Below, piece after piece: positions 2,431-42,488 of a DNA stretch of 54,059 bases. The notes beneath the pieces are model-generated. The model searched no databases and had not been told where the DNA came from. It saw only the letters and a list, made by a program, of their open reading frames with translations. Numbering within the stretch: position 1 is the stretch's first letter; the number at the start of each line of letters is the position of its first letter. Source of the DNA: Candidatus Gottesmanbacteria bacterium (lineage in GTDB: Bacteria; Patescibacteriota; Microgenomatia; UBA10105; UBA927). The position numbers were made by a program, and so were the translations under genes. Location of the stretch: assembly GCA_023245335.1 (NCBI GenBank), contig JAHFKK010000001.1, positions 1,164,053 through 1,218,111 on the forward strand. Reading direction: 5' to 3'.

Positions 2431-4479
2431 ATGAACAAAGAAACACAACCTATCGGCTTATTTGATGCACGACCGGGGCGCACTCCTTCCCGGGAACAAT
2501 GGGCGCTCTCGCTCACCGAACAACTCCGATCTCGTGACGCGCTCTATATCGTAGACGCACGTACGAAACCGCTTCCGGAATTTTTACAGGACAGACTCAC
2601 GAAACCGGACATAGAAGCATTTGATCAATATCTGCAAACGACCTTCGGCTCTGACTGGAAAAATCACATGAAAGGTAAGACATTTGTTATCGCATATACA
2701 AAATTCGGTCACGGGCACAAACATCAGGCGCTTGATATGGCAACGACACTAGCACAGGTAGCCGACGCGCGGGTTGTGCTGTTTGATCCCATGGACGCGC
2801 TTCCCGTCCGAGAACGCATGCTTATGGTCCACAAAAAAGATCTGCATAAGGCGATGCAATTCCGTGATCAGGAAATCCTAAACAAACTCAAAACGGAAAT
2901 CGAAAATCACAAGAACAGCCCTTGGTGGCAATCGTTTCATGACTTTATTCCATATGAGGAAGCATATCTGTTGGGAGAAATTGCGATGAAAAACCTTCCC
3001 GCACAATCGGAGACCGGCAACAACTATGCGGTCCAACATCCCTCCCGACTCACACAACTGTCTCAAAAAATTCTTACTGCCCATCCTATATTTTTTGGAC
3101 GGGCATTCAGTATAGCGGAAACCGAAGCGACAGAACGATCCGTCGCTGCGGCGACAAGCGCCATCGCGGCTCAGTACGGGGCTGATGCTATACTCGCTAC
3201 TCAAATCGATTCGATCCGCGCCATGACTCCGGACGTACTCCTCTGGCTCCCGAATAACCTGCATAAAGCAGCGCGTCACGCATTGCAAACGATTATCACG
3301 ATTACTCCGGATAACGGATATACCAAGCGCAAACCAGGAACGACCGATAACGGCCCATTAACGAAATCCGAAATTATAGAAGACATCGCTATAGCTTCCC
3401 CTCATGCGTTCACCCTGAGAAACACCGCTTCGTGGCTTCGTAGGGCGGTACATGTCGTCGCAGATGATGTAGTCGCAGAGCGATTCAGTTCGTATTGGGG
3501 TGTACCGAAGCGTGAATATTTTCCGTTCGGAACAGTTGCTGACACGATCTCACCACAACAATATATTGAAAAATGGTCCGGTCCGACTCGCCGAATACTC
3601 ATCGCTTCCAATGGCAACGGATCAAATATCCCTGATGCCGTACGCGCCATTCAGGAAATGGGCGCTTTGTCGCCTACGTGGCTTCAAGACCATCAATTAC
3701 ATCTTGATGTCTTCATTGCTGATCTTCCTACGAAGGTGCCCATGATACTTGAGGCAGCCCAACAAGCCGGCATGCAGGACCAAATAGAGATTATTGATTA
3801 CACCAAAGACTTTTTTGAAAAGCAGCGGTCGTTCTCTTATAGTTCGGATCCCAAAAAAAGAATCCATGTAGCATTTGGCGTGGGTGACGCCGCCGGCAGC
3901 GACCTCAAACAATTTATGCAACGGGCCGCTCATGTAGAAATCCGCTCTCCGGGAGAAAACGCTCTCACTGGGGCTAAAGTCGGGACATTAGAACTCTGTA
4001 CCCCGCCGGGCGGCCCGAACGAAGTGTATAATATGGCCTGGTCTGCCGGCGAAAAACTCGCGTACCCTATCAACTGGACGTCTGACACAAAAGCGCTGAC
4101 ATGGGAAACCATGGGGTTTACGGAATCAGAGATAGTCACAGATGGTTCTATGACACATAGCTTTCCCGATATGATGAAGTATCTTCTCAGGGATAACCGC
4201 ATGGAGACGATGGCGCGCGATGCATATCGACGCGTCAATAAACAGACGAACTACGCGATCATAGGCCTTCTGACGGGAGAAATCTTTCGCCGCAATAACC
4301 TCCCGACTCCCGACCGTGAGACGCTCAAACGATCTCTCTCACTATATATGCACAAACGTAACGCAGTACTCGACGAAGAGCTTACTATGGCGACACAGAG
4401 CCAACCACACGTCGTTTACTCCCACGATTCCCCCTCTTATCGCCTCTTCGGCGACCCGCCGACGAGGCGGGATACTTGA
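2431..4479 (+). CDS. GT-B glycosyltransferase, MGDG-synthase/GT28-like, 682 aa
   Basis: KFGHGHKHQA resembles the GxGH motif; RSPGENALT and PGGPNEVYN resemble TKPGGLT and PGQExxN. Confidence 0.55.
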   Translation: MNKETQPIGLFDARPGRTPSREQWALSLTEQLRSRDALYIVDARTKPLPEFLQDRLTKPDIEAFDQYLQTTFGSDWKNHMKGKTFVIAYTKFGHGHKHQALDMATTLAQVADARVVLFDPMDALPVRERMLMVHKKDLHKAMQFRDQEILNKLKTEIENHKNSPWWQSFHDFIPYEEAYLLGEIAMKNLPAQSETGNNYAVQHPSRLTQLSQKILTAHPIFFGRAFSIAETEATERSVAAATSAIAAQYGADAILATQIDSIRAMTPDVLLWLPNNLHKAARHALQTIITITPDNGYTKRKPGTTDNGPLTKSEIIEDIAIASPHAFTLRNTASWLRRAVHVVADDVVAERFSSYWGVPKREYFPFGTVADTISPQQYIEKWSGPTRRILIASNGNGSNIPDAVRAIQEMGALSPTWLQDHQLHLDVFIADLPTKVPMILEAAQQAGMQDQIEIIDYTKDFFEKQRSFSYSSDPKKRIHVAFGVGDAAGSDLKQFMQRAAHVEIRSPGENALTGAKVGTLELCTPPGGPNEVYNMAWSAGEKLAYPINWTSDTKALTWETMGFTESEIVTDGSMTHSFPDMMKYLLRDNRMETMARDAYRRVNKQTNYAIIGLLTGEIFRRNNLPTPDRETLKRSLSLYMHKRNAVLDEELTMATQSQPHVVYSHDSPSYRLFGDPPTRRDT

Positions 4480-11840: not shown

Positions 11841-13673
11841 ATGACCGCAGTACAGGAAGCCCGAAAAGCCCAAACGAGTATTCATCTAGAGCCGGTACAA
11901 CATACGCAGGAGACGCTCTCTCAATGGGTCGGTTGGATGAATAACCCGGAAGTCCGCAAATGGATGTACGATGACCTCCCCAGTTCCCCTGAAGACATCA
12001 ACCGTTGGCTCTATAGCGCAACGAGTGATCCCCGCCGACACTACTTCGCCATCACGACCGAAGGGAAACAGATCGGTTTTGTGAGCCTAAGGCAGGACCA
12101 CGAACCCGAGAATACCGGCGAGATCGGCATCGTCATCGGGGCGACAGAGTATCAGGGACGCGGCATCGGGAAACAAGCCGTCGATGCAATGATGGATTAC
12201 GCGAAAAATTCCGTCCATCTTACCTCAGTACGGGCTATGATCAGACCGGATAATGAAAAAAGTATCCGGCTATTTACCGTTGCCGGATTTATCCGGACCG
12301 GAGAAGCAACCATACAGGGCACCCATATGCTGCGCTTCGACAAACGTCTGGACGTAATCGAAAATCGTTCATCACCCAAAGAAGAGGCGAAAGCGCTATT
12401 TACCGAAATAGGCTTAGTCCGTCCCACAGGACAGGAACTGGGCGAGGTTGCCATCGAATTCTCCCGGCAGCTCAAAAACGGCGGCAAGAAAAATGACGAG
12501 ACCTCAAGTCTCATGATGATCGATACATTACTCTCTCCTCCGGACCCCGAGCGCCTCAAAAATGAAATCGGTAAGCACGTGCTTATCGTTGAATATGGAG
12601 GGACCAAAGTGCGCGCGGCAATCGGAGAACTCGGTCCGGACGGCCAACCAACGATCGCCAAAAACCCGGAAACAGGTGTGATACAAAAAATCGAAGGAGA
12701 ATTTTCTACCTTACGGTTTGACTCCCCCGATGCGTTTTTTGGCGAGTTATTCCGCGTTATCGACACGTCACCAATACGCATTCTTCCCAAAACCATGCCC
12801 GACACGTTCGGACTCATCTGGTCGTATGTCGGCTATGCAGAACGAACACCAAATGGAGTGGATGTGCATACGAAAGAAGGATTATCAAAAGGAATTATCG
12901 TCCGCGACATGAATACCGTTTCGGTAGGTTCTGCCCTATGGGAAGCTATACGTACGCGCTACTACCCCGATGCACCATCTCAAATGCCGCATCGATTGGT
13001 CGTCCTCAATGACACCCCGGCTGTTCTTTTCTCGCATGTCCCGGAGCACAAAGGCGTCAATCAAATCGGTTTAGTCGATGGGACGGGATTTAATATCGCC
13101 ATACACGTAAACGGCAAAGCGTATAATCTGGAGGCAGGATTCTTTAACCTCCCCCTTCTCCCTGCCTATGCCGAATCGGTAGATCGAGCATATGAAAATT
13201 CCGGTAGAAATTTCGCAGAAAAACAATCATCCGGCAAATATGTGGGAGACCAATTCGACGCCATTGTCACACTCATGCTGGAACGCGGTATCATCAAAGG
13301 CACCAAAACAGAAAAACTGGATGGCCGGGATATGGACATGCTCCTTCAAGGAAACGCGGATGCGCTTTCTCATACGTTAGGTCGCGCACTCACCAATGAC
13401 GAACTTACTGCTGTTGCGGATTGTGCCGTACGCCTTCGGGATCGGGCGGCGCTTATCATTGGAACACTGATTGGTACCATTATCCGAACCTATAGAGATG
13501 GATTCGATCCATCTGTCAATATACCCGTCGAAGGATCATTTTTCCTAAAAACTCCGGGGCTTTCTGAAATTGCCGCCATGATAGCTGTCGCCGTTGGAGG
13601 CAAACCCGTGACTTTTTTACCGGGTGAGAATTTGGGTATCAAAGGCGCCGTTGCCGCAGCCCAAAGCATGTAA
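11841..13673 (+). CDS. RimJ/RimL-type GNAT acetyltransferase fused to a hexokinase (Hexokinase_1/2 fold)
   Basis: GNAT: QGRGIGK acetyl-CoA motif, N..SIRLF..AGF. Hexokinase: EYGGTKVR, LNDT, GTGFN, NLEAG, EKQSSGKYVG. Confidence 0.85.
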   Translation: MTAVQEARKAQTSIHLEPVQHTQETLSQWVGWMNNPEVRKWMYDDLPSSPEDINRWLYSATSDPRRHYFAITTEGKQIGFVSLRQDHEPENTGEIGIVIGATEYQGRGIGKQAVDAMMDYAKNSVHLTSVRAMIRPDNEKSIRLFTVAGFIRTGEATIQGTHMLRFDKRLDVIENRSSPKEEAKALFTEIGLVRPTGQELGEVAIEFSRQLKNGGKKNDETSSLMMIDTLLSPPDPERLKNEIGKHVLIVEYGGTKVRAAIGELGPDGQPTIAKNPETGVIQKIEGEFSTLRFDSPDAFFGELFRVIDTSPIRILPKTMPDTFGLIWSYVGYAERTPNGVDVHTKEGLSKGIIVRDMNTVSVGSALWEAIRTRYYPDAPSQMPHRLVVLNDTPAVLFSHVPEHKGVNQIGLVDGTGFNIAIHVNGKAYNLEAGFFNLPLLPAYAESVDRAYENSGRNFAEKQSSGKYVGDQFDAIVTLMLERGIIKGTKTEKLDGRDMDMLLQGNADALSHTLGRALTNDELTAVADCAVRLRDRAALIIGTLIGTIIRTYRDGFDPSVNIPVEGSFFLKTPGLSEIAAMIAVAVGGKPVTFLPGENLGIKGAVAAAQSM

Positions 13674-14703: not shown

Positions 14704-15378
14704 ATGAAATCACTAAAAACGATTACCAGCGCTTTTGTCTTTAGCTCTCTCTTTTTGCTCGTTGCTGCGACTCCGGTTGCTGCCGATGGGACCTGCACCA
14801 ATCAATATGGTGCAACCGTCGATTGTCCGACTTCAAACATCGTTATCAATAAAACGGTTCGGTTCCCGACCAACGTCAATCTCTTTGTCGAAAATCTGAC
14901 GAGCAATGATCCGGCATACTCCCCCAAAGATGAGGTCGAGTATGATGTCGCAGTCTCTAACACCAGTAACGTCAATTTCCCAACCGTGACCGTCATTGAC
15001 GTATTCCCTTCCCAAGAAACGTTTGTCTCCGGACCGGGAACCTACGAAGCCACCTCCAACAAACTGACCTACGAAATTTCCAACCTCGCAGCCGGCACGA
15101 CCGTGCATAACCGCATACTCGTGCGAGTCAAAGACGCGAGCGTCTTCCCGGCTAATCAGGATATAACCTGTGACATAGTCAACACAGCAAACGCGACTGG
15201 TCCGGGCGGACAATCAGATCGGGATACATCCAGTATGTGTGTACAGACCAAAGTACTTGGAGCTACGACCCTGCCGGTTGCTGGTTTCGATGACTGGATG
15301 GTCGCCCTTCCCTTTGCTGCCTCCGGGATCGCAGGCTTAGGTCTTATCATCAGAAAGAATCGGAGGAAGATTTCCTGA
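14704..15378 (+). CDS. Secreted DUF11-like domain protein with a sortase sorting signal
   Basis: Signal peptide; VEYDVAVSNT...TVIDVFP DUF11-like repeat; LPVAG + hydrophobic stretch + RKNRRK tail. Confidence 0.85.
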   Translation: MKSLKTITSAFVFSSLFLLVAATPVAADGTCTNQYGATVDCPTSNIVINKTVRFPTNVNLFVENLTSNDPAYSPKDEVEYDVAVSNTSNVNFPTVTVIDVFPSQETFVSGPGTYEATSNKLTYEISNLAAGTTVHNRILVRVKDASVFPANQDITCDIVNTANATGPGGQSDRDTSSMCVQTKVLGATTLPVAGFDDWMVALPFAASGIAGLGLIIRKNRRKIS

Positions 15379-15449
15379 AGCTAATCACATCAGGAATACA
15401 CCTTCTGCCGGAGGCATAATAAATAAAGAGTACAATAGTAAGTTGAGAT

Positions 15450-15476
15450 AACCGGCAAGGGGGTGCCGGTTTTTTG
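15450..15476 (+). terminator. Rho-independent terminator
   Basis: AACCGGCA-N6-TGCCGGTT followed by a T-tract, about 70 nt after the stop. Confidence 0.75.
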
Positions 15477-15478
15477 AT

Positions 15479-16490
15479 GGCTGCTTAACGAGTATCCGAG
15501 TGTAGCAGCCGATCAATCCGGCGAGAAGCGCTCTTTGCGCCGTGTACGAATAAGTACCAGCCTCGCCGGATAGGCGGGACTGAAAAGGCGCAAAGCAAGC
15601 TCTGACGGATTGGTGGTTTTTGTTGAAATATCAACCTAAATAAGTATAGTTAGCACTTTTAAATATAGACTGATAAATATCAATATGTATCTTCGGAAAT
15701 GAGTCCCGCCCTGTCTTACGGCAGGAAGGCGGGCGGGATTCGTTTCTGGAGGTAACTCTCCGGATACGGATGATTTGTAGGAAGAACAAATGCGTTCTCG
15801 CTCTATCAACTTCATCCGTAGCACTTTAACAAGGCATACAGGGGAACAGTTTCTGACCCGATTCACATCGGGACAGAAATACTGTCGCCTGTCCTCTTGA
15901 GGACAGGGAAACGACACATGTTGTGTTGCTTCCCGCGTTCATACAGTGGACAGGAACTTAGTTTGCAGCAATGCGGACTAACGATTCTCATATTCCGGCG
16001 CCTTTCGCCCGTCCCTACATATCATTGCGGTATTAAGGGGCGTCGAAACGGACCGTTGGGACATGAAGATCATCTCTCAATAATATAGTTAGAAGCGTCA
16101 GCCAAAGGCTGATCGGCCTCTGACCGAGAACTGCGGACTATACGGACGTGCTTACTCCTCTTTGATGTCGTCTCTTACGGCGACCCGCCGTTGAGGCGGG
16201 AGTGTGTTTCATTTCCCCACTTATGTACAGAATATAGATTCTGTATGTATTGGGGAAATGAAATAAGAATATATTAAGAAATTTTGGGGGAAATTAAGAA
16301 GAAAAATAACGCGTCTTTGGGGGAAAATCTTGGGGGATTTCGAAAAAGCATGCGAACGGCATGTTTTGCGACGCAAAATATCCAGATTGTTTGTTTTATT
16401 TAAACAATAATCCGGATTATACCCGAAACACCACTCCCCTCCCGACTTGGGAGACCTGGGGGTGTTAAATAAAATCGTCCCGCACCAACG
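15479..16490 (+). ncRNA. Candidate large structured ncRNA(s) or structured leader, family unknown
   Basis: More than 12 stems of 6-14 bp, GNRA loops (GTAA, GCAA), + strand G-U pairs, a pseudoknot; no credible ORF. Confidence 0.45.
16098..16127 (+). repeat. 30-bp double-hairpin element, copy A
   Basis: TCAGCC-AAA-GGCTGA-TCGGCC-TCT-GACCGA. Confidence 0.75.
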
Positions 16491-16546
16491 GGATGAAATT
16501 CATCATGCCGCCGGCAAAAAAAACCGACGGAAGAGGAGAAAAGGCA

Positions 16547-17242: not shown

Positions 17243-18367
17243 ATGAACACAGGAATGAACCATCAGCGCACGAACCGTCGCACGCCAAAAACAGGGAAGA
17301 TGTCAGCCGCTGTTCCAGCGAGTATCATAATTTTGATCGTGCTCTTTGGAATCTGTGGCGCAACGTGGGGGATCTTGAGTGTGTTACGGCCCCAACAGCC
17401 GGTAGTCGCTGCGGCACCGATGCAAGTGAGCATACAGCAACAGATTGATGATGCTCATGCAACGCAGACCGCACAGATGCAAATCGCACAGGCGATCTTA
17501 GGTTCACCGACACCGACGGCACCCGCTGCTATGGCTAGCCCGACGAACGGTCCCGCCACTCAGGCGCCGACCAACACGTTGGTACCCGTTACAGCCACGA
17601 CTGGTGCGGTGGTAGTTAATACTCCGGCTTCTGCTGGGGCATCTGCTACGCCGTACTTGTTCGTCGACCCGGCAATTACACCGGCAGTCGGAACCACGAC
17701 TGGTTTCTGCCCGACGAGACGTCAAGTTGACGACTCGATTTTCGGCAAAAACGCTGACGGCTCGAGCAAGGACATCGTCGTCCAGGTCTCAAGTGAACCC
17801 GGGGGCTGGCAAGTCAACACCGGAAATCAGGCTAACTTCTATGACATCACGCTTCCTAGGGATGTCGGCCTGATTGCAACCGTCCATCAACCCGGACACG
17901 ATCAGGCACAGGAGTTTATCGGTGACGGCAAGCAATACCAGGCATTCCGCGGAACCTTCCGCTTTGCCGGCTGCTACCTTGCGTCGGACGATATGAACCA
18001 GCCTGATGCGGCCGTGAGGATCCTAGTCAAGGAGAACTACAATGGTACATTCCAAGACTGGATGATCGGCCACCGGATTCAGGATTGGACATTCGGCGTC
18101 ATACCCGGCAACTTTACCTGCCCTGCAGGTGTTTGCCCGACGGCCAATGTCACCGGCGGCGCTCCCGCATCATGCCCGCAATTTGCTGGCCACGATATGA
18201 CACCCGGATCTGACGGCGCTCCGTACTGCAAGTACAAAGGCACCGTACTGACCGGCACTGTTCCATCCGGCTGGAAAGCCGAATATTGGAACGGCTCAGC
18301 CGTTGTATATGCGAATGCTGGAGACAGCATCAAAGCTGGAGAGGTCACATATCGACCTGTCCAATAA
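17243..18367 (+). CDS. Membrane-anchored protein with a Thr/Pro/Ala-rich linker and Cys-containing extracellular domain
   Basis: AGGAGG SD 5 nt before ATG; N-terminal TM; PTPTAP-like linker. Confidence 0.85.
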   Translation: MNTGMNHQRTNRRTPKTGKMSAAVPASIIILIVLFGICGATWGILSVLRPQQPVVAAAPMQVSIQQQIDDAHATQTAQMQIAQAILGSPTPTAPAAMASPTNGPATQAPTNTLVPVTATTGAVVVNTPASAGASATPYLFVDPAITPAVGTTTGFCPTRRQVDDSIFGKNADGSSKDIVVQVSSEPGGWQVNTGNQANFYDITLPRDVGLIATVHQPGHDQAQEFIGDGKQYQAFRGTFRFAGCYLASDDMNQPDAAVRILVKENYNGTFQDWMIGHRIQDWTFGVIPGNFTCPAGVCPTANVTGGAPASCPQFAGHDMTPGSDGAPYCKYKGTVLTGTVPSGWKAEYWNGSAVVYANAGDSIKAGEVTYRPVQ

Positions 18368-18372
18368 GTTCT

Positions 18373-18577
18373 ACCCCATGGGGGCTGACCGTCGTGAGAC
18401 AGGACAGCCTCCATGCTATGGGGAAATTTTTATTTTGAGAGACATCTCTGTATGCACTTGTCACACGCGTGACGATTTTAGTTTGAGCCCTCTTTTGGGC
18501 TTAAACCTTTGGTTTATCCAATGATCGTCACGTGTGTATTTTCCAGGAAAGGATTGAAAAATCGTTTCCTGAAAAAT
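18373..18577 (+). promoter_or_regulatory. Structured intergenic or leader element (three hairpins) before the GT operon
   Basis: 11-bp, 14+10-bp and 7+4-bp stems; GTGA and GAAA tetraloops. Confidence 0.45.
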
Positions 18578-19372
18578 ATGTATAAACTCACTCTTATCAT
18601 ACCGTTTTATAACGAAACAGACCGTATTCAGGTCTGTCTAAACGCGCTGACTACATGGCGTGTTCCTCGCGGTGTTGTTTTAGAACAGGTGATATTCGTT
18701 GATGACGGAAGTAAAGACACTAGTCCTACTGTCGTTAAGCGTCATATTCCCGACCTCAAACGACACCTGCATACACAAGTGAAACTTATTTCCTATCGCC
18801 ATAACCGCGGCAAAGGATACGCCATAGCCAGAGGTATGCGGGAGTCCGACAGTGAATACAGCGTCTTTTTGGATGCCGATATAGCGACACCGCTATCTGA
18901 ATTGACCAAGATGCTTCCTGCAATGCGTCAGGGAACCGATATCATCGTGGGCACCCGGAAAAACGGTCATTCTACCGTCGGCGTACACCAACCTCTTTTC
19001 CGAGAACTCATGGGCCATGGATTTACCTTTTTGGCAAACAGCTTATTCCGGACGCGAGTCACGGACTTTACGTGCGGATTTAAAGCATTCTCCCGTCGCG
19101 CCAAAGACGCCATATTCCCCTACCTTATTTCCCACCGATGGGGATTTGACGTGGAAGCGATATTCGTGGGTAAACAACGTGGTATGAGCCTGCAAGAAGT
19201 TCCGGTCCGCTGGGATGATCAACGCGGCTCCAAAGTACAACTCTCAAAAGATATCGTACGCACAGGCTTTGAGTTGATACAGGTGCTTTTTGCATACACC
19301 ATTAAGCCCATGTCTCTATCAATTAAACCGGTAGCGGTGGTCCTGGATACGATTAAAACGTACGTTTTGTAA
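18578..19372 (+). CDS. GT2 polyprenol-phosphate glycosyltransferase (DPG/DPM-synthase-like)
   Basis: IIPFYNE, VDDGSKD, NRGKG, DAD, GSR-like GTR, DFTCGFK, WGFDVE. Confidence 0.92.
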   Translation: MYKLTLIIPFYNETDRIQVCLNALTTWRVPRGVVLEQVIFVDDGSKDTSPTVVKRHIPDLKRHLHTQVKLISYRHNRGKGYAIARGMRESDSEYSVFLDADIATPLSELTKMLPAMRQGTDIIVGTRKNGHSTVGVHQPLFRELMGHGFTFLANSLFRTRVTDFTCGFKAFSRRAKDAIFPYLISHRWGFDVEAIFVGKQRGMSLQEVPVRWDDQRGSKVQLSKDIVRTGFELIQVLFAYTIKPMSLSIKPVAVVLDTIKTYVL

Positions 19373-20657: not shown

Positions 20658-23584
20658 AACGCCTCACTCATATACTTCCTATCGTACTCCTCGCGCTTGT
20701 GTGGCTTATTGTCGTGGTGACAAACATGCATCCCAACACATGGTTATCAGGTTGGGACAACCTACACCCTGAATTCAACTTTCCGCTCAATATCAGCCGG
20801 TCAATATTCGCCGTGTGGCAGGAGTATCAGGGCCTCGGACTGTTGGGTGGGATGGGCCACGCGGCAGCTTTACCCCGGGAACTCATCTTGTGGATTTGGT
20901 CTCTGGTTATCCCTACGCAATATATCCGCTACGCCTGGACGTTTGCCATGCTCCTCGCCGGAATACTAGGCACGTACACACTCATATGGCACATTCTTGA
21001 CCGTATCAAAACTCCGTGGATTCGCGCGTTTGCAGCCTCGGCAGGAGCGCTATATTTTCTATTTAATCTCGCGACGGTACAGACGTTCTTTGCTCCGTTT
21101 GAAGCGTTTGTCACCCATTACGGCTTCCTTCCATGGTTATTGTGGAGTGACCTTCTGGTGTTGGAGAAACCGTCGAAACGCAGGACCATCCTGACGAGTT
21201 TTCTGCATACCATCGGAGCAACCCAAGCGTATATCCCGACGCTCTTTGTCGTCTATGGCATACTCCTTGGAACACTTTGCATAGATAAAATGATGAGGCT
21301 TGGTCGTGAATGGTTCATGATATTCAAACGCATTATCCTACTCGCGTTCATCATATTCTGTACTAATGCCTATTGGATGGGTCCATTTGGATTTTTTACC
21401 TTCACCCAAAGTCAGGTAACCGTGAATGCAAAAATCAATCAGATGGCGACCGATCAAATATATCAGCGTAATCAAGAATACGGAACCGTGTGGGATACGC
21501 TTATGCTTCGAAACTTTTGGTATTCCAATACCGACTACAATCCGCAAACCAGTCAAATGGAATATATGCTATCTGATTGGACTAAGTTGGATCATAATTC
21601 ATCGGTGACCGTGGCAAGAGTCATTACCATCGCTCTCATCCTCTCTGCGGCCGTGTACGCAATTACTGTGCCCTCATTGAGGGTTTGGGTGTATATAACA
21701 CTTTTGGGATTCACATTTGTTGCCTCGGGCACTCCGCCTTTCTCATGGCTTGATACAGCACTCAGAGATCACGTTCCGCTTCTCAAACAATTTTTCCGAT
21801 TCCCGTTTACAAAATGGAGCATTGCACTTGCTTTAGGATATGGCGTCCTTCTCGGCATTGCGGTGTCGCATCTCTTGTCATGGCTAAAAACGCGTTCGTG
21901 GATACAAATTGCAATTGCAGTGCTTTGTATCGGAGCACCCGTCGTAGGCGCCATCGGCATACTACAAGGCCACCTCATATCATCGCGCGTAGAGATAAAG
22001 ATCCCGCAGGAGTACTTTCAAACGTTTGACTACTTCAAAACGCAACCTCAAGGTCGTATCGCGCTCTTACCTCAACCTTCCTACTGGGACTGGAAATATT
22101 ATGCATGGGGAGAACTTGGATCTGGATTTCCCTGGTATGGCATACAACAGCCGGTCCTTGACCGTGCATTCGACGTATGGAGCAGCCAAGACGAAAATTA
22201 CTACTGGGAATTATCCTACGCCATATATCAAAAGAACCCAACCGTCCTTGCGGACGTGTTACATAAATATAATGTTCGATATATTATGATCGATTCTTCC
22301 CTTGTGCTTACAAGCAACGACCGGGCATTATTTATCGATGACACAGAAGCTTTATTGGCACAAATACCTGAATATCGTATTGACCAAAAATATGGGCATA
22401 TTACTATATATGTGCAAACATCCCCCACCGACCAATCGTTTGTACAGCTAACTCATGATCTCCCGGTAGTTAGTCCCCACTATTCGTGGACAGATAACGA
22501 CATGGCCTATCAGCTATTCGGCGATTACCGAACGCCGAATAACCCGATATCCAATACGGGGATCGTATTCCCCTACCGATCTCTGTTTACGAAGCGAGCC
22601 GTTGATGAACGGGATTTTCATGTCAATCAAACGAATGAAAATATCACCATATCATCTACGAATCCGATTGATTCCGATCTGATAACCCTTAGCCTGAAAA
22701 CAAATCTTGATTATACGTCGTCGGACCACCCGGAAGATCTCTCTCCTGCTAACTTTAAGGCTTGCGGGCTTCTGTCGACCGGCCAAATCCAGGCAACACC
22801 CATGACACAGGGGCTTACACTGAAAAGCCTTGAAGAACCGGGTTGTTTAAGCTTTGGTATATCGGAACTTCTCCATAATCAGGCATATCTTGTGGCTGTC
22901 GAATCGCGTCATGACTCAGGCAGGCAGCTCATGATCTCATTTATCAATCAAACTGCGAAACACGTCGAGCTGGAGGCATATCTCCCAGACAAATCAACGT
23001 GGGAAACAACCTATTTCATACTCCCTCCCCTTGCCTCAGACGGTCAGGGATATACCGTGTATCTTACCAACGAAAGTATTGGGAACGTCATAACGGTAAA
23101 CGACATCAAAAACATCAGTTTTTATACGTTTCCTTATCAACAAATGGTCTCTTTTCACCTTCCTGAAACAAATACGGCTCCCTCGAAACTAAACGACAAC
23201 CCAACAGCTTCGATCATATCGGTGAGCCACCCAAATCCGTCATATTATGAGGTGATTGCACATGTCGACGGACAGCCAACGACACTTCTACTTTCCCAAT
23301 CATATGATCCGAGCTGGAGAGCTTATGAAGTGCCCTGTGCCGGGAACCGAATAGTATGCCAAATCTCAAAGACATTTCCCTTCGTGTTCGGAAAAGAACT
23401 ATCGACGCACACGGAGATAAACAACTGGGAAAACGGATGGGTTCTGGATGGCTCCTCCATTGGTAACCCCGACATCGTCATTTTCTATCTTCCCCAGCTT
23501 TTGGAGTATGCAGGATTCGGTTGTTTCGCGGTTTTACTCGGATTCATTATTTGGAAAAGGCCGCAAGGACAGGATAATTCTTAA
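20654..23584 (+). CDS. Large polytopic membrane protein, GT-C/YfhO-AftD-like
   Basis: About 12 hydrophobic segments, FFRFPFTKW motif, large extracellular domain, LSQSYDPSW and NGW motifs, C-terminal TM; 4-bp overlap with the GT4 gene. Confidence 0.75.
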   Translation: MKRLTHILPIVLLALVWLIVVVTNMHPNTWLSGWDNLHPEFNFPLNISRSIFAVWQEYQGLGLLGGMGHAAALPRELILWIWSLVIPTQYIRYAWTFAMLLAGILGTYTLIWHILDRIKTPWIRAFAASAGALYFLFNLATVQTFFAPFEAFVTHYGFLPWLLWSDLLVLEKPSKRRTILTSFLHTIGATQAYIPTLFVVYGILLGTLCIDKMMRLGREWFMIFKRIILLAFIIFCTNAYWMGPFGFFTFTQSQVTVNAKINQMATDQIYQRNQEYGTVWDTLMLRNFWYSNTDYNPQTSQMEYMLSDWTKLDHNSSVTVARVITIALILSAAVYAITVPSLRVWVYITLLGFTFVASGTPPFSWLDTALRDHVPLLKQFFRFPFTKWSIALALGYGVLLGIAVSHLLSWLKTRSWIQIAIAVLCIGAPVVGAIGILQGHLISSRVEIKIPQEYFQTFDYFKTQPQGRIALLPQPSYWDWKYYAWGELGSGFPWYGIQQPVLDRAFDVWSSQDENYYWELSYAIYQKNPTVLADVLHKYNVRYIMIDSSLVLTSNDRALFIDDTEALLAQIPEYRIDQKYGHITIYVQTSPTDQSFVQLTHDLPVVSPHYSWTDNDMAYQLFGDYRTPNNPISNTGIVFPYRSLFTKRAVDERDFHVNQTNENITISSTNPIDSDLITLSLKTNLDYTSSDHPEDLSPANFKACGLLSTGQIQATPMTQGLTLKSLEEPGCLSFGISELLHNQAYLVAVESRHDSGRQLMISFINQTAKHVELEAYLPDKSTWETTYFILPPLASDGQGYTVYLTNESIGNVITVNDIKNISFYTFPYQQMVSFHLPETNTAPSKLNDNPTASIISVSHPNPSYYEVIAHVDGQPTTLLLSQSYDPSWRAYEVPCAGNRIVCQISKTFPFVFGKELSTHTEINNWENGWVLDGSSIGNPDIVIFYLPQLLEYAGFGCFAVLLGFIIWKRPQGQDNS

Positions 23585-23612
23585 TTCTCCTGATGCATTT
23601 AGCAATTAATCA

Positions 23613-23640
23613 TTTAGATTGCTAACGTTAGCAATCTAAA
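23613..23640. repeat. Perfect 28-bp palindrome
   Basis: TTTAGATTGCTAAC|GTTAGCAATCTAAA, no spacer. Confidence 0.9.
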
Positions 23641-23673
23641 AATAAGACTGATAATTCTTAATCGTTTAGCCCG

Positions 23674-23916
23674 TCAAAACGAGTTTTTTCCGTGGTGAGA
23701 TAATTTCCTTCGGCGGTCATTCAGCGCTTTAACCGGTCCGGATTCGCCGATCAGGACTTGATTCTGCCCCAGTTCGGACTTCGGCTTCTCATCCCGACTC
23801 GCATTGGCTTTCGCGTTCGCGGCAAGCGCTTCTTCTTCGATTGACGACGAAGGGACTCCCGGATGTGGAACGGTTGTATTCTCTGGAACTTCAGTTGCGT
23901 TCTTATGTTCTCCCAT
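23674..23916 (-). CDS. Hypothetical protein
   Basis: 80-aa ORF in a run of minus-strand genes. Confidence 0.5.
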   Translation of the reverse strand: MGEHKNATEVPENTTVPHPGVPSSSIEEEALAANAKANASRDEKPKSELGQNQVLIGESGPVKALNDRRRKLSHHGKNSF

Positions 23917-23934
23917 ATGGTATGGATAGTTTCA

Positions 23935-24279
23935 CTAAAAGGTAATCCGGTGATGTTGCCGACCGACCGGCCGCATGCGAGTAGTTGGCTCCGACCAGTG
24001 AGACACGGTCCCCACTGAAACCGGCTCCCCTTCTTTCATCCTCGTAAGTGTCTCTTCCGATATCCCCGGCGGGTCTCCAAACTGTAGAAGAGCTTCTACT
24101 TCTATCGGCGTATACGTTGCTGCTCTGCCCGGAAAAGGAGCCCCGATGTTGTTGGGGGCCATCGAGGAGTTGAGTTCGGGTAATGCGGTGGGTTGCCGCT
24201 CATCCATGGGAAAAAAGAGGGGGTACGACCAGCCACCAATACAATCGGATTTGAAAAACCATGGAGTACTAGTATGCAA
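23935..24279 (-). CDS. Hypothetical protein (true start may be the internal MDERQ)
   Basis: ORF in a minus-strand run. Confidence 0.45.
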   Translation of the reverse strand: MHTSTPWFFKSDCIGGWSYPLFFPMDERQPTALPELNSSMAPNNIGAPFPGRAATYTPIEVEALLQFGDPPGISEETLTRMKEGEPVSVGTVSHWSEPTTRMRPVGRQHHRITF

Positions 24280-24311
24280 AAATCGGTGTCCAGATGCAAG
24301 GGGTACGCGAC

Positions 24312-25922
24312 TTATGATTCCTTCTTCGTTTCCGGCTCGCGGGCGTGGGATGGATTCGTGCGTTCCGCTTCCCTAGCTTTGCGCTTTAACTCCTGGCGGG
24401 CATGCTTGGCGTTTGTCTGGATTGTCCGGTTCATACTATCTAGAATCCGGTCTTGCGGCGGCAGAATTACTGGTTTGGTCGACACATCGATGTGTACCTC
24501 CTTTATCTGCTGACCGAAATTTGGGGACAGATTGCTCTTTTGCTTAGCTTTCTGTGACGCTCTCTTTTCTAAAAACAATGCTTTATCCCGAATCGACTGT
24601 GACTGTCGTGCGTCATCTTCTTCATTCCGCGCAGCGATCCCCTCTAATGAAGTAGTTGCTGTACGGGGAGATTCTTTCAAGCGTCGCCTCAGGGGAAGAA
24701 TCCCTTTTTGAGTGGCTTGTCCAAAATCTTTTTGCTCTTCAAAGATGTCCGGTAATTGTTGTTTGAGACGCATGATGACCCGCTCTGCTTTTGATACAGG
24801 GAGATATTCTGACGCGAGAAACTCCTGCAATCCCTGTGCGGTAGCGCGGGGCAACCCGGGAAATCCTTCCCGTTCCAATTGGTCCAAAAACGCCTGACGC
24901 GCCTCTGGACGCTTTACGAAATTGGGCATAGCGTGATCTACCCAAACCTCTGCAACCCGACGCATAAGGCCGCGGCGATTCTTCTGGGAAAGGGCGCCTC
25001 TGTCTTGCGACAACACCCGTACTGCAGCACGCATCGCTTCATAAGCTTCCAGGGGGGGCGGCGTAGTATGCATTTTTTCCAACACAAAGTTAAACCCCGG
25101 CGATTCTTTCGGCGAAACAGCTCCATCCGATATTTTTGGCCCAATAGAAGAAATATCGGGGTGTAAATCCGCACGCATGAGTCCGGTGATATGCTTCGCG
25201 CGACCGAGCGGTACGTCAGAAGCCCGTAATATGCGCTTCATCCCGGGCGCATCGGCCTGAACCCAAAGATCATACAGTTTGGCGCCGTCAGCCGCACGAG
25301 ATCCCCAATGATGCTTTTTCGACGCATCAGCATGAGCACGGATGAATAGTTGTTTCATTCCGTTCCCAAGGTCTGTCCGGGAAGCGTCATCGCTCACGCG
25401 TGTAATGTCCCTGAATAAAGGGCTGTAGTCCGGATTATGTACGTTTGCCATGATGGTAGACAGTATGGCGGTAAGCCCCGCAATTTCTATAGGTTTCGCC
25501 CCGGTCCTGTCAGTAACCGCACCCCCAACACTGGTCAAGTATTGTGCAAGTTGTTTCGGCGGCTTCGGCAAGTCCACTTCAATGCGCTTCAGGTTACGGT
25601 CGGCTAAAGTTGTTTTCAACAATTCCAGTAATTTCTGTCCGGCGACGGCTGCACCAAATACTTCCGCTGTCGTGACTCCCACTGCGGCGTACGTCGCCGC
25701 CTCTTCAATTCCGACATGATGATCTATAAGCCACTGCCTTTGTTTGGAATTGAGTTTGGGAGCTACTTTTTCTACAGCTTCGAGTATCCTTCTTTTCCAA
25801 GCGCCGGGCCCCTGACTCTCTATTACTTTCTTCGTGCCATCCCACGCGCCATACAACACCTGTTTCACCCCGGTGTGCAAGGGTTCCCGATACGGCATTA
25901 CTGCTGGTGCGCTTTCTATCAT
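24312..25922 (-). CDS. Hypothetical 536-aa protein
   Basis: Long ORF; one Ala/Gly-rich hydrophobic stretch; charged C-terminus. Confidence 0.8.
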   Translation of the reverse strand: MIESAPAVMPYREPLHTGVKQVLYGAWDGTKKVIESQGPGAWKRRILEAVEKVAPKLNSKQRQWLIDHHVGIEEAATYAAVGVTTAEVFGAAVAGQKLLELLKTTLADRNLKRIEVDLPKPPKQLAQYLTSVGGAVTDRTGAKPIEIAGLTAILSTIMANVHNPDYSPLFRDITRVSDDASRTDLGNGMKQLFIRAHADASKKHHWGSRAADGAKLYDLWVQADAPGMKRILRASDVPLGRAKHITGLMRADLHPDISSIGPKISDGAVSPKESPGFNFVLEKMHTTPPPLEAYEAMRAAVRVLSQDRGALSQKNRRGLMRRVAEVWVDHAMPNFVKRPEARQAFLDQLEREGFPGLPRATAQGLQEFLASEYLPVSKAERVIMRLKQQLPDIFEEQKDFGQATQKGILPLRRRLKESPRTATTSLEGIAARNEEDDARQSQSIRDKALFLEKRASQKAKQKSNLSPNFGQQIKEVHIDVSTKPVILPPQDRILDSMNRTIQTNAKHARQELKRKAREAERTNPSHAREPETKKES

Positions 25923-25926
25923 ACGT

Positions 25927-25964
25927 TTCTTTTGTCAACTTTCCCAATTGGGAAAATTAACAAA
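25927..25964. repeat. Palindromic site 1 downstream of the PaaX/Cas2-like gene
   Basis: 34-bp palindrome at 25931-25964 (15/17 pairs) with perfect core TTTCCCAATTGGGAAA; 25927-25956 matches 26629-26658 at 27/30. Confidence 0.9.
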
Positions 25965-26013
25965 TTAATTTATTTTCCCTTCACCAAAATATATTTATAT
26001 ATATCTTTATATA

Positions 26014-26592
26014 TCATAATTTAAATATTTTCCTGAGATCCTCGTCGTTCTCCAAAGAGCATATAGTCGCAATCTTCACAAAATGCGGGATACCATATAC
26101 TTCCCGTAAAAATTGAATCTGCTTGTCGCAGGGATACGGATACACGTACACACTCTTTTGCATTTGATAAAAGCCTATCGATTTGAGGTGATCGCGAAAG
26201 GCGGCGCGGACATGTTCTTCACCGGATGGGATATCAAATATCACCATGCGCCACATACCATCCCAATGCGTTTGCGTCGGCACTTCCAGGTCATGCACAT
26301 CATACCGAAGTATTTCTGTTTTACCACGATCGGAAAGCGTCACGGCATAACCGCCGCGAGACTCCGTCACCTGTGCATATCCATGTCTCCAAAGTCGAGT
26401 CAATTGGCGATTTACTGAAGAAGGATAATAGACCTCCCAATCCGGCCCCATGTGGCTGAGCGGATGACGAAATTTAATGTGAAACGTGTCAATAACTTCA
26501 ATGGCCAATGAGGCTCCAGACTGGAGAAGCAACAACAATATTTCTTTCGTTATATGCTCATGCGGCTTGGATAGTTCACGATGTCTTGCCAT
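26014..26592 (-). CDS. PaaX-like regulator: winged HTH + Cas2-like domain
   Basis: LTRLWRHGY...TLSDRG wing; WDGMWRMVIFDIP...R..L...GF...QKSVYV. Confidence 0.85.
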   Translation of the reverse strand: MARHRELSKPHEHITKEILLLLLQSGASLAIEVIDTFHIKFRHPLSHMGPDWEVYYPSSVNRQLTRLWRHGYAQVTESRGGYAVTLSDRGKTEILRYDVHDLEVPTQTHWDGMWRMVIFDIPSGEEHVRAAFRDHLKSIGFYQMQKSVYVYPYPCDKQIQFLREVYGIPHFVKIATICSLENDEDLRKIFKL

Positions 26593-26610: not shown

Positions 26611-26640
26611 ATTTTATGTGCTTCAGAATTCTTTTGTCAA
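26611..26640 (-). promoter_or_regulatory. Promoter of the PaaX-like gene
   Basis: Minus strand TTGACA-N18-TAAAAT; the -35 lies inside palindromic site 2. Confidence 0.6.
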
Positions 26641-26672
26641 TTCTACCAATTGGGAAAAATTACAAAAGAATT
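26627..26672. repeat. Palindromic site 2 upstream of the PaaX/Cas2-like gene
   Basis: 46-bp palindrome (19/23 pairs) centred on CCAA|TTGG. Confidence 0.9.
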
Positions 26673-42182: not shown

Positions 42183-42488
42183 TCAGACAGCCCGGCCGGA
42201 TGCTGAACTATGAAGTTCTATTGGATTCGTACTACCAAATCCGGAAAGCCGGGGATCATTGTGATCATAGGCTGAACCGTGTTTACGAAACAGGCTCAAC
42301 CCATACCATGCGGTCTGGGTAAGCTGCCAATATTCATGGGAGCTTTGGAATAACTCTATCGCAGTTGTTTTGTCTCGCCGGAGCATCGCAACATTTGCTC
42401 TCCCCAATTCTCCAACTGACTGCAACAACGCATTTCTGACGACATATGCCCAGATATCTCCCTCGGTAAAGCTGCCTTTTGACGACAT
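42183..42488 (-). CDS. Hypothetical protein
   Basis: Minus strand TTGACA-N17-TACACT (42498-42526) 9 nt before ATG 42488. Confidence 0.65.
   Translation of the reverse strand: MSSKGSFTEGDIWAYVVRNALLQSVGELGRANVAMLRRDKTTAIELFQSSHEYWQLTQTAWYGLSLFRKHGSAYDHNDPRLSGFGSTNPIELHSSASGRAV

Follow-up and report, generated by a model that had tools for sequence, protein, structure and literature searches.

Evidence for a new family of large structured RNA ahead of a surface operon in Candidatus Gottesmanbacteria

Introduction

Few bacterial RNAs are both large and rich in conserved helices, and those described so far, i.e., RNase P RNA, group I and II introns, OLE, GOLLD, ROOL and HEARO/omega RNA, are catalytic, guide proteins or adopt unusual architectures. 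CPR bacteria (Patescibacteria) have tiny genomes with little spare DNA. OLE, GOLLD, ROOL, HEARO and raiA RNAs, whose functions are unknown or little understood, are several hundred nucleotides long, combine many covariation-supported helices with conserved junction and loop nucleotides, GNRA-type loops and a narrow phylogenetic range, and were discovered by comparing long intergenic regions. The RNA described here is alike in each of these respects and fulfils the criteria of the OLE/GOLLD/ROOL class (>400 nt, many supported helices, conserved junctions). The resemblance is one of kind only, without homology in sequence or structure and without a match to the respective Rfam models. It differs from these RNAs by a modular, multi-copy pair of 5′ hairpins (M1/P2) that heads different RNA bodies, and by its fixed place after a sortase/pilin-like gene pair in CPR bacteria.

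Regulatory leaders offer a second point of comparison. HK022 put RNA, the Bacillus EAR element and the leaders of polysaccharide operons carry a two-stem-loop module right after the promoter, followed by terminator-like hairpins and a cell-surface or glycosyltransferase operon, and attenuators rely on mutually exclusive helices. Our locus shares all of these features, but the likeness to put and EAR is one of layout (two hairpins at +1 before terminator-like hairpins) and no data on RNA polymerase activity support it. There is no homology to put or EAR (no EAR match in Rfam), the body of the RNA is about five times larger, and some M1 copies lack a gene in the same orientation after them. A search of the literature returned no description of such an RNA in CPR bacteria.

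Results and discussion

A gene-free region with conserved RNA structure

The window, i.e., the whole stretch of DNA that was analysed, comprises 54,059 nt of Candidatus Gottesmanbacteria contig JAHFKK010000001.1 (positions 1,164,053-1,218,111, forward strand). About 1 kb between the end of the CLIPPER gene (15378) and the start of the next gene (16493, or 16547 under an alternative gene call) is without genes. A tRNA/tmRNA scan returned none, no similarity to phage DNA was detected, and contigs from other samples, inspected for population variation, were identical to the window. Upstream, the region is bordered by the following feature, which is also present 3′ of the CLIPPER gene in the related loci L020, L010, L008 and L012:

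15450..15477, + strand: intrinsic terminator (stem 15450-15471, then a T-run) belonging to the CLIPPER gene, which codes for a sortase substrate

Beyond this terminator the region is composite, consisting of a 139-nt insertion, a promoter, an RNA of approximately 580 nt, G-tract repeats and a stretch just upstream of a lipoprotein gene. The operon downstream of the RNA encodes GT2, GT1 and surface proteins.

Folding of the region is exceptionally stable. Across 15450-16500, z-scores in 150-nt windows ranged from -4 to -8 against a background mean of about -0.3 (sd 1.4), and the mean z for 15440-16350 was -4.7 relative to dinucleotide shuffles, whereas the remainder of the 54 kb averaged about -0.3. 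Among 719 windows scanned, those with z ≤ -4 concentrate in 15450-16500, 18001-18675 and three further spots; two other gene-poor gaps (23584-24312 and 51281-52995) had mean z near 0, with no excess folding. The minimum free energy of 15440-16500 was -430.9 kcal/mol on the plus strand and -372.6 kcal/mol on the minus strand.

Homologs of the RNA follow the sortase-CLIPPER gene pair in L003, L097, L098, L099, L101, L102, L103 and L023, and more distant forms occur in L006, L008, L009, L010, L020 and L021. The RNA is conserved with extensive compensatory change in at least 10 other Gottesmanbacteria loci. An alignment of seven species yielded 92 consensus pairs in 11 helices (90.5% paired), 41 of which show compensatory (double) changes, against 17.6 ± 2.7 in shuffles (0/500 as high). 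Sliding the pairing partner by 1-3 columns reduced the paired fraction to 36-50%. Since G-U outnumbers A-C by 83 to 14 among the consensus-pair cells, the selected molecule appears to be a plus-strand RNA, and some G-U pairs are kept as G-U across homologs. We show that the ~1-kb region holds significant, strand-specific conserved RNA structure. On transcription, the metatranscriptomes of both source studies are uninformative, the organism being absent from them.

An initial annotation, made from the sequence alone, had described about 1 kb of non-coding DNA packed with RNA-like structure, with mismatches resolving as G-U on the plus strand only. Both claims held, the former by the absence of genes and by z-scores far below those of shuffles, the latter by the G-U excess; two of the checks it had proposed, folding against dinucleotide shuffles and covariation among homologs, were both strongly positive.

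Promoter and 5′ module

The putative promoter and the two hairpins that follow it are arranged as follows:

15650..15677, + strand: predicted sigma-70-like promoter, -35 TTAGCA (15650-55), 16-nt spacer, -10 GATAAA (15672-77)
15687..15755, + strand: M1, long hairpin at the 5′ end of the RNA, base YCGGAARYGAG.../...CUCRYUYCYGG, tip with ACGGCAGG
15745..15764, + strand: P2, small hairpin CUGGAGG-UAAC-UCUCCGG, recognized by sequence inspection

The promoter is kept immediately 5′ of M1 in six loci, in the form TTAGCA-N16 followed by GATAAT, GATAAA or GCTAAA in L020, L098, L099, L103 and L003 (10712). Transcription is predicted to start at about 15684-15688, a position that has not been mapped. A TTGAC ahead of M1 was considered as a -35 element and rejected, no -10 lying at proper spacing.

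M1 is supported by covariation on its own (14 pairs, 88% paired, 7 with double changes) and as helix 1 of the seven-species alignment (23 pairs, 96.9% paired, 11 compensatory). A covariance model built from nine loci recovered M1 in six new loci, always with a better score on the plus strand; these six are the loci with sequence downstream of the gene, L104 ending too soon. In each copy for which both strands were listed, the plus strand exceeded the minus strand by at least 5 bits, usually by ~20-45. About 20 of the 22 M1 copies are accompanied by P2, whose pairs are of many types, and the M1/P2 module occurs in multiple copies in Gottesmanbacteria genomes. The 5′ strand of P2 is also the 3′ base of M1 (shared CYGG), and its 3′ strand repeats the 5′ strand of M1; because M1 and P2 share a strand, only one base can be closed at a time. 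Thus M1/P2 fulfils the attenuator-type criterion of mutually exclusive helices conserved across homologs.

M1-led units do not always stand ahead of a gene in the same orientation. In L010 and L024 they face small ORFs on the opposite strand, including a HicA toxin gene, which argues that these units are not leaders.

The RNA body and its 3′ part

The RNA is predicted to extend over approximately 580 nt of the plus strand, from about 15686 to 16263, both ends being predictions. Beyond the 5′ module we recognize at least seven supported helices, together with invariant blocks and a long 3′ hairpin; the list also gives the G-tract repeats and the stretch ahead of the lipoprotein gene:

15765..15820, + strand: M2 domain, closing stem 15765-73/15812-20, inner hairpin 15780-87/15794-15801
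15824..15843, + strand: near-invariant block CUUUAACAAGGCAUACAGGG, 18/20 positions identical in 7/7 sequences
15838..15892, + strand: M3, multi-segment hairpin, ACAGG/CCUGU base, UUUCUG/CAGAA middle, variable tip
15888..15957, + strand: M4 region, hairpin CCUGUCC-UCUUGA-GGACAGG (15888-15907), hairpin 15906-15934, second GGACAGG 15950-56
15959..15980, + strand: M5, hairpin with GCAA (GNRA) loop; helix 9, 9 pairs, 6 compensatory, 93.9% paired
15983..16072, + strand: M6, long irregular hairpin domain, containing conserved GCGCCUUUCGCC and GGGGCGUCGAAACGG
16066..16084, + strand: conserved single-stranded motif GAUCAUCUCUCAAUAAUAU, also in L098, L099, L103, L102 and L003
16085..16183, + strand: variable segment with local hairpins, poorly conserved
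16184..16200, + strand: GC-rich terminator-like hairpin CCCGCC-GUUGA-GGCGGG, then a U-rich tail
16207..16263, + strand: long 3′ hairpin of 25 bp, U-rich 5′ arm, CCCC, UGUACAGAA, loop, UUCUGUAUG, GGGG, A-rich 3′ arm
16250..16340, + strand: four (U/A)GGGG(G)AAAU repeats, purine-rich and C-poor, each copying the 3′ arm of the long hairpin
16346..16546, + strand: stretch just upstream of the lipoprotein gene, hairpins 16346-76, 16380-16426, 16430-70 and 16477-93
16447-16475, + strand: promoter-like TTGGGA-17-TAAAAT, with an RBS and ATG at 16547

Six of the eight pairs of the M2 inner hairpin (helix 3) proved compensatory, as did 7/26 pairs of M3 (three sequences), which also contains helices 5 and 6 of the seven-species alignment, and eight of the 26 pairs of M6 (window, L098 and L099). 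By inspection, the M2 closing stem is formed by other complementary sequences in L003, L099 and L102. Within M4, the CCUGUCC at 15888 has three possible pairing partners, and L003, L098 and L103 carry a hairpin of ~50 nt inserted into the first loop (helices 7 and 8). The near-invariant block bears a single substitution each in L103 and L102, and its YUUAACA core is retained even in the distant subfamily B. Considered as an internal promoter, the block was rejected for lack of a -10 at proper spacing; a pattern scan of IMG/VR gave only chance matches in which the motif was not continued, and a screen for mRNA targets of the invariant blocks inside the window gave no outlier. A related copy of the single-stranded motif lies ~30 nt ahead of the lipoprotein start codon in L021.

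Toward the 3′ end, the 16184-16200 hairpin is the same in L099, has a twin at window 4449-4472, and is replaced in L003 by a similar GC-rich hairpin. Terminator-like hairpins of this kind occur in the window, L099 and L103; none adjoins M1/P2, and their U-tracts are weak. The long 3′ hairpin (helices 10 and 11, 16 pairs) shows compensatory changes, e.g., in L097, and retains U-G or G-U in 3-6 of 7 sequences at three positions. It includes the palindrome TGTACA. No U-tract follows this last conserved hairpin, where the sequence is instead G/A-rich, and neither a canonical terminator nor a C-rich Rho-loading stretch was found between the RNA and the next gene. Three to five G-tracts stand at the equivalent place in L098, L099, L102, L103, L097 and L003, and the stretch 16346-16546 is conserved with L103 only.

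The variable segment raises the possibility that the region is decayed coding sequence that folds well by chance. In support, 16095-16186 is similar to a portion of a genuine L013 ORF (QPKADWPLAD against QPKADRPLTE), and 16176-16205 resembles the C-terminus of window ORF 2431-4479 (FGDPPTRRD against YGDPPLRRE). These matches are, however, short, and their E-values of 0.005-0.18, from a very small search space, are weak; they fall in two separate reading frames and do not extend beyond 16095-16205, and the same element is non-coding in L012. Moreover, no ORF is conserved across homologs, and compensatory pair changes are not expected of decaying coding DNA. We therefore regard a pseudogene origin as highly improbable.

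Comparison with known RNA families

None of the 4227 covariance models of Rfam 15 matched the window at the gathering threshold, and relaxing the filters and accepting E ≤ 10 added nothing but noise from miRNA-type hairpins, with scores far short of threshold. The RNA in 12 homologous loci likewise gave no match, and that of L099 only noise at a relaxed threshold. This upholds the initial annotation, which had failed to match the region to RNase P, tmRNA, SRP or a riboswitch by eye.

A very divergent housekeeping RNA (RNase P, SRP, 6S or tmRNA) or a group II intron could have been missed by Rfam, and resemblances to RNase P RNA are all that speaks for it. RNase P RNA is a single-copy molecule whose hallmark is the long-range P4 between CR-I (GAGGAAAGUCC) and CR-V. 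As a matter of general knowledge, GGAAAUGAGUCCCG recalls the CR-I sequence GGAAAGUCC, ACGGCAGGAA occurs also in Bacillus subtilis RNase P RNA, and GACAGAAAUAC recalls the ACAGAA of CR-IV; each of these likenesses is superficial. The two RNAs are alike in short sequences only (GGAAA..GUCC, ACGGCAGGAA, ACAGAAA) and differ in architecture: the GGAAA..GUCC strand pairs locally within M1, no long-range P4 was found, the 5′ module is multi-copy per genome, and no RNase P covariance model matched. Group II introns are recognized by domain V/VI, D1-D4, a GUGYG 5′ end and an intron-encoded protein; neither Intron_gpII nor group-II-D1D4 matched at E ≤ 10, and no reverse-transcriptase ORF was present. 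With no match at E ≤ 10 under relaxed filters in window or homologs, no tag ORF and no intron-encoded protein, this explanation is very doubtful.

Like the CsrB/RsmZ-type sponges, the RNA carries repeated CAGGRAA-like motifs at hairpins (3-4 in 421 nt, 0.37 expected), and AUACAGGGA fits the known CsrA SELEX consensus RUACARGGA. It differs from the sponges in that most of the motifs are base-paired, on the 3′ side of a hairpin, rather than presenting GGA in a loop, and in that they number only 3-4. A tblastn search found no CsrA in the window or in 38 related loci, a small part of any genome, and no Hfq gene was found in the window and related loci examined, again a very small sample.

Taken together, we consider it very probable that the locus encodes a plus-strand structured RNA of a new family, so far known only from Candidatus Gottesmanbacteria. 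Transcription should start from the sigma-70-type promoter at ~15686, and M1/P2, M2-M6 with their invariant single-stranded blocks, the terminator-like hairpin and the 25-bp 3′ hairpin would fold in this order during synthesis, each of the G-tract repeats being a possible substitute for the 3′ arm of the long hairpin.

Element A and the possibility of selection on DNA

The 139-nt insertion between the terminator and the promoter contains a second structured element:

15478..15616, + strand: window-specific insertion of 139 nt, hairpin 15479-15510 plus element A
15506..15613, + strand: element A, small three-helix structured element (covariance model R1, 55 bits)
15516-21/15605-10, + strand: P1 of element A, pairing both ends of the element
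15528-41/15587-15600, + strand: P2 of element A
15544-47/15554-57, + strand: P3 of element A, with a GAAUAA loop
15559-15582, + strand: extra hairpin inside element A, in the window only

The insertion is bordered by TTTTTG repeats (15472-77 and 15617-22) and is missing at the orthologous site in all four relatives compared (L020, L098, L099 and L103), its flanks running contiguously in L020. Elsewhere the R1 model scored 74-89 bits in L010, L021, L024, L006 (minus strand) and L101, where the element sits at the M4 first-loop position of the large RNA. Its 20 pairs (90.8% paired) include seven with double changes, a number reached in 0/500 shuffles, and four copies have tandem G-A in the internal helices, where the window copy has Watson-Crick pairs instead. 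Element A is unrelated to the ~580-nt RNA and, in relatives, is found at other sites and in other orientations; both RNA families have so far been found only in Candidatus Gottesmanbacteria.

Element A resembles MITE-like repeats (ERIC, RUP, Correia, REP) in its size of ~80-140 nt, its pairing ends, its presence or absence at orthologous sites, the short flanking repeats, and its occurrence in both orientations and inside other transcripts. It differs by the RNA-type covariation of its internal helices and by the lack of a known matching transposase, and its six known copies stand one per locus, in different species rather than in one genome. The flanking repeats, TTTTTG in the window and AGCACYTT in L006, are both short, and one is of low complexity. 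Scanning IMG/VR with the element A pattern gave only chance matches, without continuation of the motif.

These observations bear on the view that selection acts on DNA, i.e., that the region consists of palindromic operators or cruciforms plus MITE- or REP-like debris in a variable intergenic hot spot. In its favour, element A is insertion-like (absent in four relatives, short repeats, either orientation) and its P1 pairs the ends like terminal inverted repeats; relatives' intergenic islands carry toxin-antitoxin genes and small ORFs, and the long hairpin contains TGTACA. Against it stand the 83:14 ratio of G-U to A-C, with some G-U conserved as such, and the preference of covariance models for the plus strand, usually by ~20-45 bits. 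In addition, the helices are irregular, branched, variable in length and compensatory, unlike protein-binding palindromes, and element A exchanges tandem G-A for Watson-Crick pairs. Selection on DNA alone is thus unlikely.

The individual stems that the initial annotation had listed by eye fared unequally. Those at 15698-711/15731-44 (M1, with covariation), 15838-92 (M3), 15958-81 with its GCAA loop (M5) and 16207-63 (with conserved G-U pairs) held, and GAG-GTAA-CTC at 15749-58 corresponds to P2, found at that place in ~20/22 M1 copies. The stem 15765-73/15812-20 held in place, its sequence differing in L003, L099 and L102; 15906-34 was partly supported, and 16184-200 recurs in L099, with a similar GC-rich hairpin in L003. 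The stem 15479-85/15504-10 is confined to the window, 16084-90/16136-42 is not kept in L003, the nearest relative examined closely over that part, and the perfect 10-bp stem 15516-25/15562-71 failed, conflicting with the covariation-supported P1 of element A. The overall suggestion of a large uncharacterised non-coding RNA, or a set of structured RNAs, before a lipoprotein/surface operon is supported and refined to a composite region, transcription being inferred.

Leader or stand-alone RNA

What the RNA does is less certain. Our preferred reading, inferred without transcript data and in our judgement slightly less likely right than wrong, is that it forms a cis-acting leader of ~860 nt, or a processed RNA, of the downstream surface/glycosylation operon. 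This reading rests on the absence of a canonical terminator or C-rich Rho-loading stretch before the next gene. The M1/P2 strand-exchange module may bind a factor or set the accessibility of the 5′ end, and would in this way govern whether the 16184-16263 hairpins are read through, confer stability or undergo RNase III-type processing. Attenuation, or processive antitermination of the put/EAR kind, would be the mechanism. A stable processed RNA may remain from the structured 5′ part.

In favour of the leader model, all full-length homologs carry the RNA in the orientation of the next gene, and the short form in L021 is followed by a hairpin with a U-tail, an RBS and a lipoprotein gene ~100 nt on. 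The exclusive yet conserved M1/P2, the terminator-like hairpins, the lack of a final U-tract and the surface/GT2/GT1 operon downstream are also in line with it. Against the model, there is no RNA-seq evidence, and the start site and 3′ end are merely predicted. The gene after the RNA is mostly non-homologous among relatives, and the stretch just ahead of it is shared with L103 only; the far better conserved RNA is therefore not tied to one regulated gene. The promoter-like sequence at 16447-16475 could drive the lipoprotein gene alone, the M1 units of L010 and L024 are not leaders, and more than 10 helices with invariant junctions exceed known attenuators in elaboration.

The main alternative, somewhat less likely in our judgement, is a stand-alone, trans-acting or structural large non-coding RNA (an OLE/ROOL/GOLLD-like RNP or RNA-only scaffold, or a protein sponge) that has its own promoter, ends or is processed at the 16184-16263 hairpins and acts independently of its neighbours. 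It is supported by the conserved promoter and 3′ hairpins, by a length of ~580 nt comprising at least 10 helices, loops of the GNRA and GNRNA types and unpaired invariant blocks, and by a conservation much better than that of the following gene. The multi-copy M1-led units, some of which have no co-oriented gene after them, and the recurrent CAGGRAA on hairpin 3′ sides also favour it. However, the conserved unit ends without a canonical terminator, genes for CsrA and Hfq were absent from the very small sequence sample, the invariant blocks have no outstanding mRNA target in the window, and the short form in L021 resembles a plain leader.

Implications

A bolder reading, possible though less likely than not, is that the locus represents a new class of large RNA specific to CPR (Gottesmanbacteria) genomes, with M1/P2 as a generic cis element and element A as a mobile domain. 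If so, the M2-M6 body would adopt a well-defined tertiary or quaternary architecture or assemble into an RNP that has a biochemical function of its own; M1/P2 would be a put-like antitermination element or a gate at the RNA 5′ end, heading leader, antisense and non-coding transcripts in reduced genomes; and element A would be an RNA domain able to insert into such RNAs. Caught as an insertion, element A is relevant to the movement and recruitment of structured RNA domains.

For study of these questions the locus supplies a predicted promoter, a multi-copy strand-exchange module, two covariance models and homologs from more than 15 loci. An RNA of ~0.6 kb under purifying selection that is better conserved than the neighbouring protein genes, in genomes this small, implies an important function, perhaps in controlling the cell surface and episymbiosis.

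Structured RNA region

No credible ORF was found between the gene encoding a CLIPPER-domain sortase substrate and the lipoprotein gene that follows, so the gene-free stretch reported in the initial annotation held.

Features of the RNA region (window positions; RNA elements on the + strand)
14704-15378: CLIPPER gene, upstream of the RNA region
15450-15477: terminator of the CLIPPER gene
15478-15616: insertion bounded by TTTTTG repeats
15506-15613: element A, a small structured element with three helices, P1, P2 and P3 (GAAUA(A) loop in P3)
15650-15677: predicted promoter, TTAGCA-N16-GATAAA, about 7 nt 5' of the M1 base
15687-15755: M1, a long hairpin, conserved at its base and variable at its tip, which often carries ACGGCAGG
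15745-15764: P2, using the same CYGG strand as the M1 base; its 3' strand repeats the M1 5' strand
Body, 5' to 3': M2, near-invariant block, M3, M4, M5, M6, conserved motif
15824-43: near-invariant block CUUUAACAAGGCAUACAGGG
M4: hairpins with repeated CCUGUCC/GGACAGG strands
M5: hairpin with a GCAA loop
16066-84: conserved motif GAUCAUCUCUCAAUAAUAU
16085-16183: variable segment
16184-16200: GC-rich terminator-like hairpin
16207-63: 25-bp hairpin
16346-16546: stretch immediately 5' of the lipoprotein gene, common only to the window and the related locus L103
16493 (16547 by the other gene call): start of the lipoprotein gene

The minimum free energy of 15440-16500 was -430.9 kcal/mol on the + strand versus -372.6 on the - strand. 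The annotation had proposed folding against dinucleotide shuffles; when this was done across the whole window (20 shuffles for each 150-nt segment), mean z over 15440-16350 was -4.7 on + and -4.0 on - (12 segments), far below the roughly -0.3 of the rest of the 54 kb. Windows with z ≤ -4 clustered only here, at 18001-18675 and in three small spots. The gene-poor gaps 23584-24312 and 51281-52995, which hold no ORF ≥ 100 aa (the latter is low in GC, 0.37 at 51-52 kb), had mean z near 0, indicating that non-coding status alone is insufficient for the fold signal.

Homologues and covariation

Two groundwater metagenome assemblies contain identical copies of the locus. Loci retrieved via the adjacent sortase assign the organism to Candidatus Gottesmanbacteria, within the CPR/Patescibacteria. 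For comparison we used loci from relatives (L numbers), 38 fetched via the sortase and 7 more via closer CLIPPER homologues (70-79% amino-acid identity). Full-length homologues of 15618-16280 lie immediately 3' of the same sortase and CLIPPER gene pair in L098, L099 and L103, a shortened version occurs in L102, the homologous region of L003 and L097 is located beyond an extra gene block, and L101 and L023 have partial versions only. The more distant L006, L008, L009, L010, L020 and L021 retain the 5' hairpin together with a YUUAACA motif, but their bodies differ. No ORF conserved across homologues of the region was found.

On A12, a seven-sequence alignment of the region, the RNAalifold consensus has 92 pairs, 40 with compensatory changes, and 90.5% of cells are paired. 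Two-sided changes occur in 41 pairs, versus 17.6±2.7 with 3' partners shuffled, and none of 500 shuffles reached as many. Sliding the partners by 1-3 columns dropped pairing to 36-50%. M6 adds 26 further pairs, 8 of them compensatory, among the three closest sequences.

Consensus pairs include 83 G-U versus 14 A-C cells, several G-U pairs of the long 3' hairpin are kept as G-U among homologues, and the + strand outscores the - strand in both covariance models (margin at least 5 bits, mostly about 20-45). The annotation's argument for an RNA rather than DNA cruciforms therefore stands, and explanations at the DNA level or as a pseudogene are, taken jointly, unlikely. A coding-sequence origin was also rejected: the protein-like matches, which stay unexplained, are weak, fall in two frames and are confined to the variable 16095-16205.

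Predicted promoter and 5' module

The predicted promoter is conserved in L020, L098, L099, L103 and the second unit of L003. M1 pairing in nine loci comprises 14 pairs (88% paired, 7 double-change), and a model built from those loci found M1 in six of seven later-fetched ones; the seventh, L104, gave no match and has almost no sequence 3' of the gene. Since this model also picked up additional copies in L003, L010 (three), L012, L021, L024, L097, L099 and L101, M1 is a multi-copy 5' module heading different RNA bodies. About 20 of the 22 M1 copies have a P2, with many pair types, and we infer from sequence that the M1/P2 arrangement has the layout of a strand-exchange switch, an activity that has not been shown. 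Overall, we show a conserved RNA structure of many helices on the + strand, together with a promoter-like element that is also conserved and a 5' module whose two conformations exclude each other. Its transcription and ends are inferred only, and no activity is established; the organism is missing from the metatranscriptomes searched.

Two M1 hairpins occur in several genomes: in tandem in L099 (3401-3593), and in L003 (10741-10815, 13571-13707) and L097 (6868-6936, 8649-8751) at the head of two distinct RNAs with a few genes between them. The window joins the promoter of a first-type unit to the body of a second-type unit, suggesting inter-unit deletion or recombination.

Element A and the 139-nt insertion

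The insertion is absent from L020, where its flanks are contiguous, and from L098, L099 and L103. Element A follows an M1 hairpin in L010 and L024, lies at another place in L021, sits on the minus strand within the RNA in L006 and substitutes for the M4 hairpin loop in L101. Its 20 pairs are 90.8% paired, with 7 double-change pairs (0/500 shuffles), and where four copies have a tandem G-A, the window copy has G-C and C-G. The perfect 10-bp stem 15516-25/15562-71 in the annotation failed as conserved pairing, for it draws on a hairpin specific to the window and is incompatible with the conserved element A fold.

Comparison with known families

The annotation had proposed an Rfam cmscan as a challenge to novelty; no family matched in the window or in 12 homologous loci, leaving the novelty in place. 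No tRNA or tmRNA was detected in the scan, no phage similarity was found, and a literature search found no description of such an RNA. Likeness to RNase P RNA was only superficial. With the large ornate bacterial ncRNAs the RNA shares its general type but no homology. On all available tests it represents a new RNA family, accompanied by a second new small element (element A). The large uncharacterised ncRNA of the annotation held as a family without an Rfam match, its transcription being inferred.

Variable and repeated segments

Part of the variable segment (16095-16205) resembles coding sequence in L013 (16204-16289, -; QPKADWPLAD) and non-coding sequence in L012 (2122-2190). The GC hairpin CGGCGACCCGCCGnnGAGGCGGGA recurs in L099 and at the extreme end of window ORF 2431-4479 (FGDPPTRRDT*; 4443-4472). 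These resemblances could stem from a decayed gene or from a hairpin element held in common; their origin is unexplained. L023 (2093-2310) has a tandem duplication of the M4 hairpin unit (AAAUACUAGUACCUGUGCUGGAAAAUUCCUAUUUUUCAGUGCAGGGAA) and two further degenerate copies; the loop sequence GAAUUCCUAUU, with its palindrome GAAUUC, occurs in all of them. Four GGGG(G)AAAU repeats lie 3' of the 25-bp hairpin (three to five in homologues), and each could stand in for its 3' arm.

Other features of the window and its relatives

A second strongly structured intergenic stretch, 18368-18520 (wider 18226-18675), lies between the genes for a 375-aa secreted protein and GT2; its window z falls to -9.7, 18340-18560 folds at -85.9 kcal/mol (z -6.2), and a long hairpin within it, at about 18462-18535, is near-perfect. 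Isolated windows with z ≤ -4 are 25651-25800 (+), 42226-42375 (-) and 45151-45375 (-), the last within a 1-kb gene-poor gap (44454-45505). Two copies of a 44-nt palindromic AT-rich element with centre CCAATTGG(G), 82-84% alike, flank ORF 26014-26592 (25927-25970, 26627-26672) and might be paired operator sites or divergent promoters. A 610-aa fusion (11841-13673) joins an N-terminal GNAT acetyltransferase to a C-terminal hexokinase-like domain; L097-L104 instead encode the acetyltransferase on its own, in a gene of about 180 aa at the matching position. At 52800-54059 (GC 0.64), 9-nt-periodic repeats encode a collagen-like Gly-X-Y protein (+) cut by the window end.

After the sortase-CLIPPER pair, relatives carry islands that also hold small opposite-strand genes (L010 9715-11846; L006 9750-10260; L024 6290-6570; L039 1580-2030; L012 2250-2770; L101 3042-4600). 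Among them are genes for coiled-coil proteins of about 70-120 aa beginning MITDADIKK, whose TTGACA-N17-TAGAGT promoters are near-leaderless; others encode Cys-rich proteins (about 60-75 aa) or HicA toxins. In L010, L006 and L024 the small genes alternate with or adjoin M1-led RNA units.

Leader or stand-alone RNA

Our preferred reading, inferred without transcript data and held at slightly less than even odds, is that the RNA would act in cis as a long leader for the surface/glycosyltransferase operon 3' of it. In its support, G/A-rich sequence and no U-tract follows the last conserved hairpin, the RNA points toward the next gene in all full-length homologues, terminator-like hairpins lie within it, and in L021 a short form leads to a hairpin with a U-tail and, about 100 nt on, a lipoprotein gene. 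We also count in its favour that the M1/P2 pair lies at the predicted +1, as in put-type antitermination RNAs.

The main rival, which we rank somewhat below the leader and hold to be less likely than not, is a large ncRNA that stands alone and serves as an RNP or RNA scaffold or, through its CAGGRAA hairpins, as a sponge. It is favoured by the points that count against a leader: the gene 3' of the RNA is not conserved among relatives, a further promoter-like site, distinct from that of the RNA, is present at 16447-75, small ORFs on the opposite strand, among them a HicA gene, are convergent with some of the M1 units of L010 and L024, and the body is far more elaborate than known attenuators. 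The two readings are not mutually exclusive: RNase III-type cleavage of the long hairpin could free a stable RNA from a leader. The family would matter because large RNAs of this type are uncommon and have more than once led to new biochemistry, and because CPR bacteria have small, densely packed genomes.
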